Source: a virus. Taken from it: a stretch of DNA of 33,570 nucleotides. A model generated the notes under the pieces. That model was not told the origin of the DNA, made no database searches, and was given only the letters and a program-made list of their open reading frames with translations. Both the position numbers and the translations under genes were made by a program. Location: the IMG/VR virus record IMGVR_UViG_3300004829_000003; one strand, written 5' to 3'. Positions 1,865 through 7,523 of this stretch are shown here, in pieces. The first letter of the stretch is position 1, and each line of letters starts with the position of its first letter.

Positions 1865-2389
1865 TCAACGCACAAACTTGTATTCAACCCAATAAGGATG
1901 CAACCAGCCTAAGTCCTGCAACCCAGCAAAGATCGCTTCATTAATGAATAGAAAATCTGCTGCATGATTAGAATATTTGACATGCACCTTGATTGTGCAA
2001 TGCTCTTTATCGCACCGCAACCCACCACCACCAAGAGCAAGCGTGGTTCGTAAGTCATCCATGCGCACTGGCCCTATCGGAACTCTACCGCCAGAATAAT
2101 TTTTGACCATGTTCTGTATGCGCTCAGACTTTAGCGGAAAGTCGCTGTCAATTTTGTAAACAGTGTTAGGCTTCTTCGGCACAGCCAGCCAGAGCGTTTC
2201 TGCCGCTGCCTCTGGTGCGCCTATGATTAGCCCACCCACAGCCATAGGGACATTGAATAGCCAGATGCCAACTCTATCAACTATATGCAAACTATCCGCG
2301 CCGTGGGTGCGGATGCGTTCACCAAGATAGTCTATGCGGAAACAGAACAGTACAAACACTGCGCACAGTGCGATTAATGCTTTCTTCAT
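1865..2389 (-). CDS. Membrane-anchored or secreted 174-aa protein of unknown function
   Basis: Track ORF 1865..2470 trimmed to ATG 2389, preceded by GGAGG (tggaggttgcaATG). N-terminus MKKALIALCAVFVLFCF is hydrophobic; a second hydrophobic segment is VGIWLFNVPMAVGGLIIGAP. Confidence 0.7.
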   Translation of the reverse strand: MKKALIALCAVFVLFCFRIDYLGERIRTHGADSLHIVDRVGIWLFNVPMAVGGLIIGAPEAAAETLWLAVPKKPNTVYKIDSDFPLKSERIQNMVKNYSGGRVPIGPVRMDDLRTTLALGGGGLRCDKEHCTIKVHVKYSNHAADFLFINEAIFAGLQDLGWLHPYWVEYKFVR

Positions 2390-2490
2390 TGCAACCTCCA
2401 TTGCATTTATGCTACAGAACCTTTGTGGCAATAATGTGTTGATAGGACGGGTCGAGGGTAGCACGACCAACTTTTTGACCCACCCCCCGT

Positions 2491-2877
2491 CTACGTCAAA
2501 TCTATACTGACCGATATGTCGCCAGCGTGCAGGTGCATGTGACGCTCTGGGGCCTTGAACCCAGCTCTGTCTAAGATATCCTTGCTCGCTTCTAACTGCA
2601 CGTACTCACTCTTGGCCCCACGAGCTAACTGCACCAGTCTAGCGGCGGCTATCGTAGCACTCACGCCCATAGTCTCACCAATCCTCTGCATCATATACGC
2701 TTGCACATGTGGCAGCCGCAAAGCCTTGCTGGCTGTCACTCTCCCACTCTCACCAGAAGCATAACCTGCCAAGCCAGCCGCTTCCGTTATGCTACATCCA
2801 TTTGCTACAAGCGCATCAACCAACGCGGTCTGCTTGGTGGTTAGCTTCTTCTCACCAGCCGTTATTACAGCACTCAT
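2491..2877 (-). CDS. Terminase small subunit-like HTH protein (Terminase_2-like pattern)
   Basis: KLTTKQTALVDALVANGCSITEAAGLAGYAS...ASKALRLPHVQAYM plus C-terminal LEASKDILDRAGF match the pattern I know from phage small terminases. It is the first gene of the minus-strand operon and is GC-rich relative to terL. Confidence 0.55.
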   Translation of the reverse strand: MSAVITAGEKKLTTKQTALVDALVANGCSITEAAGLAGYASGESGRVTASKALRLPHVQAYMMQRIGETMGVSATIAAARLVQLARGAKSEYVQLEASKDILDRAGFKAPERHMHLHAGDISVSIDLT

Positions 2878-2901
2878 TACACACCCTTGCGATTCTCATA
2901 A

Positions 2902-2921
2902 CCCCCCCTGTAATCCCCCCC
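2902..2921 (-). other. Potential G-quadruplex motif G7-ATTACA-G7 on the minus strand
   Basis: Plus strand reads ccccccc tgtaat ccccccc (2902-2908, 2915-2921). The minus strand can be parsed as G3-N1-G3-N6-G3-N1-G3, 25-44 nt upstream of the TerS-like start. Confidence 0.4.
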
Positions 2922-2951
2922 TACATACACGCTGCTCAACCCCCTTGTCAA
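2922..2951 (-). promoter_or_regulatory. Candidate sigma70-like promoter for the minus-strand operon
   Basis: Minus strand: TTGACA (2951..2946), 18-nt spacer, TATGTA (2927..2922). Host unknown and the -10 is weak. Confidence 0.2.
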
Positions 2952-3113
2952 CGCACAACATACGCCTGTCACACGCACACTGCCGCGAGCAAGGCGCAGT
3001 CCGCACCAGCGACCGTGACCGACCTTGCTCTCGGTGGCTTGCGCCAGCGAAGCCAGTGTGGTGTGACCGCCCGTTACTTATCAGCAAGAGAACTGCAACA
3101 CGACAATACATGC

Positions 3114-3128
3114 ATGCACGCAGTGCAT
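3114..3128. promoter_or_regulatory. 15-bp palindrome ATGCAC-GCA-GTGCAT (near-copy at 3425..3441)
   Basis: Perfect 6-bp arms around a GCA centre. It differs from the second copy only by one extra G:C pair per arm. Confidence 0.6.
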
Positions 3129-3148
3129 CAGTGTTGTCACACTGCTAG

Positions 3149-3197
3149 CTAGAACCACTACCAGAACCATAGGTTCTATCATAATTAGTGGTTCTAG
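3149..3197. repeat. Nested inverted repeat with four AGAACC/GGTTCT half-sites
   Basis: CTAGAACCACT (3149-3159) is the reverse complement of AGTGGTTCTAG (3187-3197). These enclose AGAACC-ata-GGTTCT (3163-3177). Confidence 0.8.
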
Positions 3198-3231
3198 TTA
3201 TGCAGACCAACTGGCCGTTGCGTCACTGGCT

Positions 3232-3246
3232 CTGGTCGCAGACCAG
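3232..3246. repeat. Palindrome CTGGTC-GCA-GACCAG
   Basis: Perfect 6-bp arms with the same C-GCA-G centre as 3114-3128 and 3425-3441. Confidence 0.6.
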
Positions 3247-3250
3247 TTGC

Positions 3251-3310
3251 GGATAGTCGAGCTGGTGCTATCGCCATGGGCGATTAGCGCACTAATAGCT
3301 CTGACTATCC
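3251..3310. repeat. Extended two-tier hairpin (12-bp outer helix, 9-bp inner helix)
   Basis: GGATAGTCGAGC (3251-3262) pairs with GCTC-t-GACTATCC (3298-3310). Inner GCTATCGCC-atg-GGCGAT(t)AGC spans 3267-3288. Confidence 0.65.
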
Positions 3311-3408
3311 GTAGCGTGGCGTAACGGACGTTGCAGTTGGATGTGCGGCGCAAGACGAGCTTGCGAGTCTTCACGCTGATAGGAGAACACACGCCGCACA
3401 AGTTACGG

Positions 3409-3509
3409 CCCAGCATAGCTGGGAATGGCACGCAGTGCCATGCATCTCCCAGATGCAGTAACTGGTGCTAGGCGGCATCGAGCCGCCTGCGAGTGTGTAC
3501 TCTACACAC
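3409..3509. repeat. Run of five consecutive short hairpins
   Basis: CCCAGC-ata-GCTGGG (3409-3423), ATGGCAC-gca-GTGCCAT (3425-3441), TGCATCT-ccc-AGATGCA (3441-3457), AGGCGGC-atcga-GCCGCCT (3470-3488), GTGTGTA-ctc-TACACAC (3493-3509). Confidence 0.75.
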
Positions 3510-3537
3510 ACACACGATGAGCGAATGTTATCACACA

Positions 3538-3556
3538 GTTCATGCCACGCATGAAC
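3538..3556. repeat. Hairpin GTTCATG-ccacg-CATGAAC
   Basis: Perfect 7-bp arms, read directly. Confidence 0.6.
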
Positions 3557-3578
3557 GGTGTGCCAGCACGCCCACTCG

Positions 3579-3667
3579 GTCAAGAGGTGCGATTCTTGCG
3601 CAGACATGCAAATGTCTGCGGTGCGCAAGAATAGCGACACCGCAAGTGCGGTGCTTCGCCTCTTGAC
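3579..3667 (+). ncRNA. Candidate cis-acting structured leader element (closing helix plus two hairpins, one GNRA-capped)
   Basis: GTCAAGAGG (3579-3587) pairs with CCTCTTGAC (3659-3667). Hairpin 1 is 3592-3632 with a GCAA loop (GNRA on the plus strand only). Hairpin 2 is 3634-3659. The element ends 90 nt upstream of ATG 3757. Confidence 0.4.
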
Positions 3668-3756
3668 TTTCGTGTCGGTCGTGATGGCCTCGATAACATA
3701 TTCGCACATAGTGTGTATGTGTGACGTTTTAGTGCTTAACTTATGGAGATTGTATT

Positions 3757-4380
3757 ATGGCACAAAAGAAGAAAATGACTGTAACTAAGATCGAAACTCC
3801 TGTACGTGATGCTGGATATGCAGAGCATATCGCAGCAGCGCATGACGCAGTGTTGAACTTGGTGGATATGAACATGACCGATGACTTTGATTCGCGCTTC
3901 GCGAATCAGGTATCGGGCGAGGAGAATCCCAAGTTCAACTCGTCAGCGCACTTCACATTTGGCTCACGTGCCAAAGCATCAGGTGTTGCGCTGCGCAAGA
4001 AGCGTGAACGCTTCTTCGAACTCGAGCATCAGTATGATGCTGAGGTCGAGCGCAACGGACCTGAGTCTGCAAAGCTCATCAACCTTGGCGCAAACAAGAA
4101 CAAGGCAGAAGCAGAGTGGCACACTCTGGATGCCTTGCACCAGATGGACGTTGACTTGTACAACACGATGCACAGCGTTGGGTCCATACTTGGACGCAAC
4201 GGTGCAGAGGCAAGTCAACCTCGCATCTGGAATGACGGGAAGCACACCGAGGACCACGGCGAAGCATGGTTCGAGCAGGTGTGCGAGCGCATCCTTGAGC
4301 GCAAGGTGTTGTCGCCGCAGGCGAACACACCGAAGGTTGACCCAGCTGAACTGCTAGCGAAGCTCAAGCGTTCAGCGTAA
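3757..4380 (+). CDS. Hypothetical 207-aa protein, first gene of the plus arm
   Basis: ATG 3757 is preceded by GGAG (3745-3748). The gene is GC-rich and is followed by an intrinsic terminator. No motif recognised. Confidence 0.75.
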   Translation: MAQKKKMTVTKIETPVRDAGYAEHIAAAHDAVLNLVDMNMTDDFDSRFANQVSGEENPKFNSSAHFTFGSRAKASGVALRKKRERFFELEHQYDAEVERNGPESAKLINLGANKNKAEAEWHTLDALHQMDVDLYNTMHSVGSILGRNGAEASQPRIWNDGKHTEDHGEAWFEQVCERILERKVLSPQANTPKVDPAELLAKLKRSA

Positions 4381-4409
4381 CCTGACACATAGTTTCCTCC
4401 CCAACTGGT

Positions 4410-4441
4410 GGTGGCTTCTACGGAAGCTGCCACCTTTTTTT
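4410..4441 (+). terminator. Rho-independent terminator
   Basis: GGTGGCTTC-tacg-GAAGC(tg)CCACC stem followed by a T7 run (4435-4441), 30 nt after the stop of the 207-aa gene. Confidence 0.75.
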
Positions 4442-4517
4442 GTGCAGTTATAAACCCAGACAAACTTGCGCACACTCCCATCAACTAGATGATAGTTGCG
4501 CTAGCGATGGTAAAACT

Positions 4518-4754
4518 ATGGAGACAAAAATGTTTCATGCTCATCCAAAAACTATAAGCAAACGATTGATTGTTTTATTCTCAATGATACTCATTTGTGC
4601 AATCGGCATTGCAATCGGCGGCTTGGTAATCATTCAAGAATCAGCAGGCATTCACAACTTTATTGGCTTGCTAATGGTGTTCATATCAGTGTTCACAAGC
4701 TTTTGGGCAACGTTAGGAATCATAATAAATGTAAGTGAATACAACAACTTATAA
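4518..4754 (+). CDS. Small two-TM membrane protein (78 aa)
   Basis: Track ORF 4440..4754 trimmed to ATG 4518 (METKMFHAH...). Two hydrophobic spans: LIVLFSMILICAIGIAIGGLVII and FIGLLMVFISVFTSFWATLGIII. RBS is weak and the start is uncertain. Confidence 0.55.
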   Translation: METKMFHAHPKTISKRLIVLFSMILICAIGIAIGGLVIIQESAGIHNFIGLLMVFISVFTSFWATLGIIINVSEYNNL

Positions 4755-4829
4755 TTTATTTGATTACTGCACTTGCAGAAGTGCAACAAATATGATATTA
4801 GTACAGAGTATCTGATGATGGAGGTCAAC

Positions 4830-5660
4830 ATGTACGCAGATATTACACAACAGATAATCAAAAAGATAGAGGATGGATGCCCACCGTGGTTGCGTCCATA
4901 CAACAAGTTTGGTGGTGGATTACCACTAAGACACAACGGCATACCATACAGAGGCATGAACATCATCATGCTATGGATGTGTGACTACGACAATCCATAC
5001 TGGATGACTTACAACCAAGCGCAACAGCTTGGCGGCAACTTGAAAGGTCAGAAGTCACCAACAAAAGTCTTTCACTTTGGCACAGCTAAAGACAAAGACA
5101 AAGAAGACAGATTCTATTCGTATGCCAAAGCATACTCTGTCTTCAATGCATCGCAGATAACTGGTTTGCCATCGCATTACTATCCAAAGCAAGAACTGTA
5201 TATCAATGCAGACAAACCTGTCGCATCTATCGACAAACAACTTGCTGATATCCCAGCTAAAGTTGTTGAGGTTGATGGATGCACACCTTGCTACCGTCCA
5301 GCAACAGATGAAGTCAAAATGCCACCGTGGTCTGACTTTGTTGATGGCCTTGCATATTACAGCACAAAGATACATGAACTTGTCCATTGGACAGGTCACG
5401 AATCCAGACTTGACCGCCTTGGTCTGAAGAACAAGAAAGGCTATGCCTTTGAAGAACTTGTTGCAGAGATGGGCGCGTCATTTATGATGGCACAACTCGG
5501 GCTAGAACCAACAGCACGAGATGACCATGCACAGTACATCTCATCATGGTTGCAAGCATTGAACAATGATGTGAAGTACGTGTTTGAAGCGGCGAAAGTC
5601 GCACAACAAGCTGTGGAACTACTCAATAGTCACACAGCGCAAGATGTAGCTATAGCATAG
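4830..5660 (+). CDS. ardC: ArdC-like protein: N-terminal ssDNA-binding (DUF1738-type) domain plus C-terminal zincin-like HExxH domain
   Basis: Start trimmed to ATG 4830 after GGAGG (gatggaggtcaacATG). Motifs: MYADITQQIIKKIEDGCPPWLRPY...GIPYRGMNIIMLW...WMTYNQAQQLGGNLKGQK, and HELVHWTGHESRLDR. Confidence 0.75.
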   Translation: MYADITQQIIKKIEDGCPPWLRPYNKFGGGLPLRHNGIPYRGMNIIMLWMCDYDNPYWMTYNQAQQLGGNLKGQKSPTKVFHFGTAKDKDKEDRFYSYAKAYSVFNASQITGLPSHYYPKQELYINADKPVASIDKQLADIPAKVVEVDGCTPCYRPATDEVKMPPWSDFVDGLAYYSTKIHELVHWTGHESRLDRLGLKNKKGYAFEELVAEMGASFMMAQLGLEPTARDDHAQYISSWLQALNNDVKYVFEAAKVAQQAVELLNSHTAQDVAIA

Positions 5661-7079: not shown

Positions 7080-7347
7080 CAGAGGAAAACCTGCCGCATG
7101 TGAACATTGTGGAAGCACATCGCACTGGTTTTCAGTGATGGCAAGCGGCTCTATTTGGTGTGATGATTGTTTGGAGTATTACGGATGGGAACATCTAGCC
7201 GCAACAAAGGCAGCTACCACGAACGATGGTGGTGTAACTGGTTCAATGAGAAGGGGTGCGAAGCGAAACGCCAACCGCTATCTGGCGCGTTGGGAGGTGA
7301 GTGGAAGTCCGATATCTCTATCGCCACCAGACAAGGAAGATTGGTAG
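7021..7347 (+). CDS. Possible zinc-ribbon ORF overlapping neighbours in another frame
   Basis: CEHCGSTSHWFSVMASGSIWCDDC gives a CxxC...CxxC pattern. The distal half overlaps the resolvase gene out of frame and looks like noise, so the extent is uncertain. Confidence 0.3.
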   Translation: MSAGWMRSKRKSKSKKLQDSRGKPAACEHCGSTSHWFSVMASGSIWCDDCLEYYGWEHLAATKAATTNDGGVTGSMRRGAKRNANRYLARWEVSGSPISLSPPDKEDW

Positions 7348-7523
7348 CTGAATCAAAGTATCAAGCTACTGGACGTGGCTTCTCGTTTCTTACCAAGACA
7401 CACAAGACACAACCAGCAGACATCTATCTTCTCAAACAGAAGACAGGGCCAAACTTTATATGCATTGAAGTCAACAACCCGTTGGCTGAAAAAATAGCGC
7501 GATGGCTAGCTGGAGGTGACTAA
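7185..7523 (+). CDS. Hjc-like PD-(D/E)XK Holliday-junction resolvase / endonuclease
   Basis: Trimmed to ATG 7185 after GGAG. NKGSYHERWWCNWFNEKGCEAKRQPLSG...SDISIA...VAESK matches the KGxxxER...R.P.SG...DI...E.K pattern of archaeal-type resolvases. Confidence 0.65.
   Translation: MGTSSRNKGSYHERWWCNWFNEKGCEAKRQPLSGALGGEWKSDISIATRQGRLVAESKYQATGRGFSFLTKTHKTQPADIYLLKQKTGPNFICIEVNNPLAEKIARWLAGGD

Follow-up and report, generated by a model that had tools for sequence, protein, structure and literature searches.

Do the inverted repeats packed into positions 3579-3667 of IMG/VR virus record IMGVR_UViG_3300004829_000003 form a small regulatory device of their own or belong to something larger, and do they work as RNA or as DNA? 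The 33,570-nt stretch analyzed here (the window, taken as a whole) is a ~33.5-kb marine podovirus-like phage genome. A preliminary description of it had placed in the early-operon leader, on the plus strand, a two-hairpin module closed by a 9-bp helix, and had likened it to the put antitermination RNAs of phage HK022 or to an attenuator or riboswitch. That observation is confirmed and its interpretation is partly supported. The two hairpins and their closing helix form a three-way junction that does not stand alone: it caps a 220-nt rod, D3, which is the final domain of a ~790-nt non-coding leader (~2968-3756), and the structured coding sequence of the first early gene, orf207, follows. Comparison of relatives shows that the fold exists and that compensatory substitutions have preserved it. 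We judge it likely that the element functions as RNA, and we give slightly better than an even chance to a cis-acting, plus-sense structured early leader/mRNA that works through the processing and docking mechanism proposed below.

The three-way junction and its relatives

The junction and the repeats detected in it are as follows.

3579-3667, plus strand: three-way junction, helix P1 enclosing hairpins P2 and P3
3579-3587/3659-3667: P1 closing helix, 9 bp
3592-3601/3623-3632: P2, with apical stem 3602-3607/3612-3617 and internal loop GCGGU at 3618-3622
3638-3643/3648-3653: P3
3579-3587/3659-3667: inverted repeat I12 of the repeat finder (9 nt, 100% complementary)
3589-3602/3622-3635: inverted repeat I4
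3599-3607/3612-3620: inverted repeat I16
3617 and 3647: the two copies of direct repeat D13, TGCGGTGC

The 9-bp helix and the two hairpins within it were found where they had been described, and the repeat finder recovered both tiers of the first hairpin, P2. Folding of the 97-nt stretch 3575-3671 gave -50.2 kcal/mol on the plus strand, compared with -29.8 +/- 2.9 kcal/mol for 200 dinucleotide shuffles (z -7.0), none of which folded as well; the minus strand gave -47.5 kcal/mol (z -6.4). All core pairs are Watson-Crick, and the junction core alone is therefore uninformative on strand. The evidence given below nevertheless supports the element's placement on the plus strand, within the untranslated leader that precedes the first rightward gene, and the distance from the end of the element to the ATG at 3757 is 90 nt, as previously stated. 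Finer details fared less well. An outer GCGA/TCGC tier assigned to the second hairpin, P3, is missing from both the minimum-energy and the centroid structures, clashes by one base with the closing helix and is without an equivalent in relatives of the L003 and L110 types. The GNRA tetraloop said to cap P2 (GCAA, 3608-3611) is limited to the window and L009, with GUCA, GCAU or a UGU triloop in other variants, and the TGCGGTGC said to be shared by both hairpins is indeed present in two copies in the window but is lost from P3 of L003 and is thus unconserved.

The relatives, all uncultured marine podovirus-like phages, fall into four lineages: A (the window, L001, L009, L010 and L005), B (L003), C (L110-L113, L108 and L109) and D (L114 and L126). 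The leader was found in 10 IMG/VR contigs, fetched through the small terminase gene terS or through orf207, and divergent orf207 proteins (83%, 82% and 48-51% identical) gave further loci. Searches based on orf207 recovered 10 close loci in IMG/VR, six loci but no new type in JGI metagenomes and none in reference genomes, while a search of 5.8 billion proteins was the source of the divergent types P0003 to P0005. Exact-pattern scans of IMG/VR with the P2 hairpin and with a block of D2, another leader domain, returned the same 10-11 contigs only, and the P2 pattern was absent from 185,579 reference genomes.

MAFFT alignments of the junction placed the 3' arms of P1 and P3 wrongly, and we therefore decomposed the junction by hand, verifying each string in the sequences, which yielded six variants from the four lineages. 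P1, P2b and P3 contain no broken pair in any of the six. Four of the nine P1 pairs have been exchanged for other pairs: position 3 from C-G to G-C in type C, position 7 from A-U to G-C in types B, C and D, position 8 from G-C to C-G in type D and position 9 from G-C to A-U in type B; at position 2, U-A has become G.U in type B. Two further compensatory pairs occur in the apical stem of P2 in L110 and three in P3 of L003. Single-sequence folds of L003, L110/L113/L109, L114 and L126 share the D3 architecture, with arms that differ in sequence. The loops, the duplicated GCGGUG and the junction strands are unconserved; the strands (UGCG, CUCG, GUCG, UGAC and so on) are lineage-specific, with J12, J23 and J31 different in each of the four lineages. 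The preliminary description had named conservation in relatives as a check on its proposal, and the structure is indeed kept there through compensatory changes.

The same pattern extends over the leader. Across nine sequences, region 3100-3760 has 155 consensus pairs, with 99.0% of cells paired, and 13 of these pairs have changed on both sides, compared with 0-4 in slid controls and in none of 500 shuffles. In the first leader domain, D0, compensatory changes affect 9 of 36 pairs (window, L003, L005, L110 and L126). A covariance model of the junction (R1) scored 65-126 bits on the plus strand versus at most 19 bits on the minus strand. Matches to R1 and to a second model built on D2 (R2) were confined to orf207-bearing lineages among ~70 related loci, and neither model had an instance in ~60 relatives that share terS only, a distribution that indicates co-inheritance of the leader with orf207. 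R1 scored 8 bits on the positional homologue in L114, which is not significant, so homology of that junction rests on its architecture and flanking similarity only.

A three-way junction might also suggest a riboswitch or attenuator, in which the junction binds a ligand and switches an expression platform; such junctions are common as riboswitch cores, and the duplicated GCGGUG could pair alternatively with CACCGC (3638-3643). This alternative pairing is lost in L003, however, and the junction strands, as described above, vary between lineages. Searches of Rfam 15 gave no match at gathering scores and nothing above chance level even at E <= 5. Nor is there an expression platform: no conserved terminator follows or adjoins the element, and the Shine-Dalgarno sequence of orf207 is not sequestered, being mostly unpaired in all types. 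We consider this reading very improbable.

The leader, its strand and its probable transcription unit

The features of the leader and of the gene behind it, all on the plus strand except the terS promoter, are listed from left to right.

2922-2951, minus strand: sigma-70-like promoter of the terS operon, TTGACA (2946-2951), 18-nt spacer, -10 TATGTA (2922-2927)
2958-2963: candidate early-promoter -10 CAACAT, overlapping the terS -35 region, with a putative start near 2970
2968-3067: D0, first structured domain, inside the probably spurious orf71
3114-3128: hairpin AUGCAC-GCA-GUGCAU
3129-3144: adjacent hairpin CAGUGU-UGUC-ACACUG
3146-3200: variable hairpin of some A-type genomes only, wholly missing in L005, L003 and L110
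3207-3340: D2, a bifurcated rod (rods of ~40 bp) and the best-conserved core of the leader
3349-3365: small hairpin CGCAAG-ACGAG-CUUGCG, replaced in the L110 type by GCGAC..GUCGC plus an extra hairpin
3382-3503: D2b, a multi-branch junction with closing helix 3396-3406/3458-3468, consecutive triloop hairpins 3409-3423, 3425-3441 and 3442-3456, and a further hairpin 3469-3489
3504-3722: D3, ~220-nt rod (fold z -7.9)
3504-3532/3692-3722: outer (CA)n/(GU)n helix of D3, 26 bp with four 1x1 mismatches and one 2-nt bulge
3533-3561: side hairpin of D3
3562-3575/3672-3688: upper helix of D3, carrying the three-way junction at its tip
3732-3763: small hairpin GUGCU...GGCAC, bracketing the Shine-Dalgarno sequence GGAG (3745-3748) and the AUG at 3757
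3757-4380: orf207, first early gene, 207 aa
4407-4441: intrinsic terminator, a 12-bp stem plus seven T

Region 3100-3760 folds at -321.9 kcal/mol on the plus strand (z -14.7) and at -297.4 kcal/mol on the minus strand (z -11.2), and 2968-3724 reaches z -14.5. Within D2, a middle helix carries compensatory changes and five to six G.U/U.G pairs are invariant in all six sequences; the domain is 81% identical in L126, though the orf207 protein of that genome is only 51% identical. D2b is 92-96% identical to its L110 counterpart and has compensatory changes at alignment columns 499/505 and 461/563. In the hairpin at 3129-3144, three of six pairs are compensated in the L110 type (GAGCGC/GCGCUC), and the loop of its neighbor at 3114-3128 varies between GCA, GAA and GUA. 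The base helix of D3 ends 35 nt ahead of the orf207 AUG. The small hairpin that follows it occurs in the window, L003 and L110 types, with the Shine-Dalgarno sequence in its loop and largely unpaired in the ensemble. Sequestration of that site by pairing of 3366-3379 with 3729-3751 appeared in one fold only, was lost in the other types and in the ensemble, and was rejected.

An 11-nt core with a C-GCA-G triloop, GCACGCAGTGC, occurs twice in the leader in the same orientation (3116-3126 and 3428-3438); in relatives the loop of these hairpins is GAA, GTA or ACA and the stems covary. Neither this core nor the P2 half-site GCGCAAGAAT is dispersed in the genome, so we rejected the idea that they are repeated operators.

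Non-Watson-Crick pairs are informative on strand, as a C.A mismatch on one strand corresponds to a G.U pair on the other. The minimum-energy fold of the plus strand over 3100-3730 contains 13 G.U pairs versus a single C.A mismatch. Consensus helices contain 8-13 G.U versus 0-1 A.C, a count that is biased by the predictor. The energy of the whole leader is better on the plus strand by 13-29 kcal/mol in four of four types, and in sliding windows the plus-strand z lies below the minus-strand z almost everywhere. The folding strand is thus the plus strand.

The structured zone also has defined limits. Sliding-window z is ~0 over terS and left of ~2900, strongly negative over ~3000-4450 and ~0 again past the terminator. 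Transcription on the minus strand leaves the leader region, since the terS promoter fires leftwards from ~2915; the layout of this promoter is kept in the distant terS relatives L016, L089 and L126 (-10 TATGTA/CATAAA; consensus TTGACA-N18-(T/C)AT(G/A)(T/A)A). In the opposite direction, the homologous -10 position reads CATAGT in L016 and forms part of TCCACA-16-CATAAT in L089, and from homology with L089 we infer a weak plus-strand promoter whose -10 would occupy 2958-2963 and whose start would lie near 2970. There is no conserved terminator between the leader and orf207. Leader, orf207 and terminator would therefore constitute one transcription unit of ~1.48 kb (~2968-4441), and a feature that runs from a divergent promoter region through a gene to a terminator is explained most simply as belonging to a transcript. 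Folded as a whole, the unit (2968-4445) gave -692.5 kcal/mol with 74% of bases paired.

Directly after the terS promoter, at the start of the terS leader, the minus strand carries a G7-N6-G7 motif (2902-2921), with a spacing of 6-7 nt across relatives. The motif is invariant in terS relatives down to 73-77% protein identity and may serve as a regulatory site, as a pac-related signal, or as an element that forms a G-quadruplex or R-loop. On the same side lies orf71 (2896-3111, minus strand, 71 codons), whose junk-like translation is rich in Arg, Cys and Gly and overlaps the covarying D0. The L110 type does not keep this reading frame, and in L110-L113 gene callers find nothing between terS and orf207. 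It is probably not a gene, and the non-coding gap accordingly spans 2878-3756 (879 nt).

Several observations weigh against a plus-sense RNA. We could compare four independent lineages only, and pairs were counted in the same sequences from which the structures had been predicted. Taken by itself, D3 is slightly more stable as the minus strand, both in the window and in L114. Standard and relaxed scans with E. coli-type rules found no convincing plus-strand sigma-70 promoter in 2860-3760; among hexamer pairs in 2800-4800 none reaches 9 of 12 matches, and the only pairs with 8 of 12 lie outside the D3 and D2 stems. Many of the hairpins are perfect palindromes with 3-nt loops, which are commoner in DNA inverted repeats than in classical structured RNAs. 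The distant relatives L065 and L089 carry non-homologous hairpin arrays that lack a plus-strand bias. Finally, the 5' arm of a palindrome in Pelagibacter phage Hodr, the closest cultured relative (portal identity 62%), holds a promoter-like TTGCCA-16-AATAAT, which fits a DNA-level role there.

These points lead to the main competing explanation, a DNA-level element in which the inverted repeats would work as cruciforms or in the form of folded single strands. It might be an origin of replication or recombination-dependent replication, a packaging signal near terS, or a hairpin promoter like Frpo or those of N4. The stems are near-perfect palindromes with many 3-nt loops, two of them C-GCA-G hairpins, and folding with DNA parameters is also extreme (z -10.4). 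The region adjoins terS, and the phage encodes ERF, a RecE-like exonuclease and a RusA-like resolvase, with no polymerase or initiator recognized. ArdC, encoded downstream, is known from single-stranded plasmid leading regions (Frpo: PMC11541004). Related phages carry non-homologous hairpin arrays at the same place, and in Hodr the promoter-like site lies inside an arm of the palindrome. A DNA site would not be expected, however, to match a transcription unit from the divergent promoter region through a gene to its terminator. The G.U-type pairs are invariant and lie heavily on one side. No stem contains a -35/-10 pair, and the virion machinery is that of a double-stranded DNA phage. Related contigs break at arbitrary positions, which makes fixed genome ends or a cos site at the leader unlikely and suggests headful packaging instead. 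We therefore regard a DNA-level element as rather unlikely.

The arrangements in these relatives are as follows. L089 encodes an orf207-like protein 28% identical to that of the window behind a leader of ~650 nt that is non-homologous and packed with hairpins (z -10), and it has the same layout of promoter, leader, open reading frame (ORF) and strong terminator directly after the ORF. In L089 (2239-2973, minus strand) and in L065, there upstream of terS, near-perfect hairpin arrays of 560-850 nt and unrelated sequence, many with G-run/C-run stems, occupy the same genomic position. Other terS relatives, Hodr included, have long hairpins ahead of the first early gene. In Hodr (L091, OQ414635), a palindrome of ~180 nt (3636-3816) lies immediately upstream of the first early gene, and its 3' arm holds the Shine-Dalgarno sequence and AUG; much of its 5' arm may escape transcription, as the promoter-like site lies inside that arm. 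This geometry recalls single-stranded DNA promoters.

Possible functions of the leader and orf207

The orf207 protein has no family match in Pfam, PHROGs or NCBIfam, and its AlphaFold model is poor (pLDDT 53.7); it contains an invariant basic helix (LRKKRERF). That orf207 genuinely codes for protein is shown by homologues down to 28% identity and by the comparison of the window with L110, in which amino acids are 83% identical although synonymous sites are saturated, with 39% identity at four-fold sites (30/77); the four-fold sites of terS are 70% identical (38/54). In the same comparison, leader identity is 92-96% over 3400-3499 and 84-86% over 3200-3299, and outside its apical stem and loop the 42-nt P2 hairpin has 100% identity among types A, B and C. 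D2 and the P2 hairpin are thus under purifying selection at the sequence level, and this constraint beyond pairing suggests specific recognition.

The coding sequence (CDS) of orf207 is itself structured, with a fold z of -7.8 compared with -0.6 to -4.6 for 14 other genes of the window. Across six sequences, the CDS and terminator have 29 of 162 consensus pairs changed on both sides, versus 2-10 in slid controls and in none of 500 shuffles. In the hairpin at 3812-3835, GGAUAUGC..GCAUAUC becomes GGACAUGC..GCAUGUC and elsewhere UACGC..GCGUA, so that amino acids are altered while the hairpin is kept, and at 3895-3913 the same codons form lineage-specific perfect 8-bp hairpins. The downstream terminator named in the preliminary description is a conserved intrinsic terminator at 4407-4441, kept with compensatory changes in L110, L001, L009 and L108. 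In L003 and L009, an extra small ORF lies between orf207 and this terminator, and beyond it different genomes carry one of two alternative sequences of ~100 nt.

On the favored explanation, the leader RNA would act in cis. Its long quasi-continuous helices, such as D2 and the 26-bp base of D3, would serve as determinants of double-strand-specific processing and stability, modeled on the RNase III sites of the T7 0.3 leader and the lambda N leader; RNase III-type processing is proposed because these two helices would be ideal substrates. The sequence-invariant D2 and the P2 hairpin of the junction would form a docking surface for a factor, which may be the orf207 protein or RNA polymerase. Once docked, that factor would set transcription or translation into orf207 and passage through the terminator to ArdC and the other early genes, with the ribosome-binding site itself left open.

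Antitermination is a possible function of the junction. In its specific form, the junction would be a put-like, protein-independent antiterminator or an N/nut-like site for the orf207 protein, allowing readthrough of the 4407-4441 terminator. The layout equals that of lambda PL-nutL-N-tL1 and is kept even in L089. No strong promoter is recognized between the terminator and the next gene, the sequence-invariant P2 suggests a binding site, and orf207 has its invariant basic helix. The leader lacks a boxA-like sequence, though, and its GNRA-type loop is unconserved; orf207 is unlike any antiterminator family, and the two differing sequences of ~100 nt after the terminator could hold promoters of their own. 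A put site, moreover, consists of two open hairpins directly after a promoter, whereas this junction is closed and would lie ~600 nt downstream. This specific form is, in our estimation, unlikely.

Alternatively, the leader or fragments of it could be a stand-alone, trans-acting large non-coding RNA, such as a scaffold or a decoy or sponge for a host nuclease or defense protein, with its position upstream of orf207 incidental. Size, domain number and covariation are within the range of the large ornate RNAs GOLLD and ROOL (PMC12286853), conservation of D2 and P2 exceeds the needs of pairing, and the long helices would presumably be excised by double-strand-specific nucleases. Set against this, there is no conserved terminator or obvious 3' end ahead of orf207, the structure runs on through the CDS, leader and gene are strictly co-inherited, and no conserved loop motifs for tertiary or quaternary contacts were seen. 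A stand-alone RNA therefore seems quite unlikely.

A bolder extension of the cis-acting leader may be entertained tentatively: the 1.5-kb unit would be an undescribed phage RNA-protein module, a large ornate RNA working with its own product. Its fold would then be conserved even at the cost of the amino-acid sequence of the gene it carries. Such a module would be, for example, a self-assembling ribonucleoprotein, an N-like antitermination platform or an anti-defense decoy, and the non-homologous hairpin-array leaders of L089, L065 and Hodr would belong to the same functional class.

The leftward arm of the genome carries terS (2491-2877, Pfam Terminase_2) and continues across the window ends with terL, portal, major head and tail genes, while the rightward arm after the terminator encodes the ArdC-type anti-restriction protein, an XRE-type regulator, the RusA-like resolvase, the RecE-like exonuclease and ERF. 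A 2.5-kb block at 1900-4450, covering orf201, terS, the leader and orf207, has 50-60% G+C versus ~43% for the genome, and within it abnormal structure is found only at ~2970-4441. A second strongly structured stretch (5100-5299, plus strand, z ~-10 in a 200-nt window) lies inside the ArdC gene. On the minus strand opposite the early genes, a promoter-like TTGACA-16-TATTCT (7592-7565) precedes a strong terminator-like hairpin with a 15-bp stem and a T run (7533-7496); this pair could mark a ~70-nt antisense small RNA that faces the RusA-like ORF at 7167-7523.

The carrier of this leader is an abundant, uncultured marine podovirus type related to pelagiphages, and its leader has more than 150 conserved base pairs, no Rfam family, and a structure that continues into a protein-coding gene whose codons co-evolve in such a way that RNA helices are preserved. 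Should its RNA nature be confirmed, it would add a class of large structured RNA from marine viruses, a clean natural case of overlapping constraints on protein and RNA structure, and a handle on the timing of early expression in phages that lack a polymerase of their own. The 1.5-kb unit from promoter region to terminator is small and self-contained, hence synthesizable.

Comparison with known systems

A blastn search of 3100-3800 against 50,697 phage records gave no match, and we found no described equivalent in the literature on pelagiphages and marine phages. We compared the leader with known systems by layout and by the features that define each of them.

Frpo/ssi elements are single-stranded DNA promoters of plasmid leading regions (PMC11541004). 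The leader resembles them in its long imperfect hairpins upstream of early anti-defense-type genes (the ArdC family is nearby) and in its strand specificity. Unlike them, it has no -35/-10 pair in a stem, its structure extends over a coding gene, and the genome encodes a double-stranded DNA virion (terS, terL, portal, capsid and tail) rather than single-stranded entry.

GOLLD and ROOL are large ornate RNAs of bacteria and phages, longer than 500 nt, multi-domain and often near tRNA genes (PMC12286853). The leader is likewise longer than 500 nt, multi-domain, supported by covariation and phage-associated. It differs in having no Rfam match and in lying in a window in which a tRNA/tmRNA search found none. 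It is also contiguous with a protein-coding gene that shares its structural bias, it has a very narrow range (about a dozen contigs), and its stems are mostly perfect helices with minimal loops and few elaborate internal loops.

Structured leaders that control early transcription are textbook devices of phages, namely the lambda nut/N leader, HK022 put and the T7 RNase III sites; to our knowledge, all of these come from a few coliphages and all are short, the present leader being about four times as long. The put RNAs of HK022 are two adjacent stem-loops of ~65-75 nt that share no common helix and directly follow the early promoter. As in put, two cis-encoded hairpins lie in a phage early leader upstream of terminators. 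In layout, however, the present hairpins sit inside a covarying 9-bp helix on a long rod, ~600 nt past the putative start. The RNase III sites of T7 early mRNA, such as R0.3 ahead of the anti-restriction gene 0.3, are single hairpins of ~60 nt. The leader shares with R0.3 an irregular long hairpin in the first-early-gene leader of a podovirus, with anti-restriction genes nearby (here ArdC), and its 26-bp D3 base provides the quasi-continuous duplex of at least ~20 bp beside the first early gene that characterizes such a site; here, though, the hairpin is a 220-nt rod capped by a three-way junction inside an 800-nt fold.

The early-left module of lambda consists of PL, the N leader with nutL and an RNase III-sensitive hairpin, N, and the terminator tL1. 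Differences in components are clear. The leader described here is ~3.5 times longer (~790 versus ~220 nt), is multi-domain and is followed by a hyper-structured CDS. The 207-aa orf207 protein is unrelated to N, with no match to an N family in the protein databases searched. No boxA or boxB was found: boxA GCTCTTTAACA, allowing up to two mismatches, is absent from 2878-3756 and occurs genome-wide at chance frequency, and the sole GNRA loop, a boxB-like feature, is the unconserved one of P2. Membership of the put, nut or riboswitch class is thus not supported. The resemblance to lambda lies in the arrangement as a whole: the first early gene follows a structured untranslated leader with a long hairpin immediately ahead of its ribosome-binding site, leader and gene are co-inherited, and a strong intrinsic terminator stands directly after the first gene and ahead of the remaining early genes, in both the window and L089. 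From these comparisons, the leader is best filed outside every described RNA family, as a new and unusually large variant of the structured phage early leader/mRNA.

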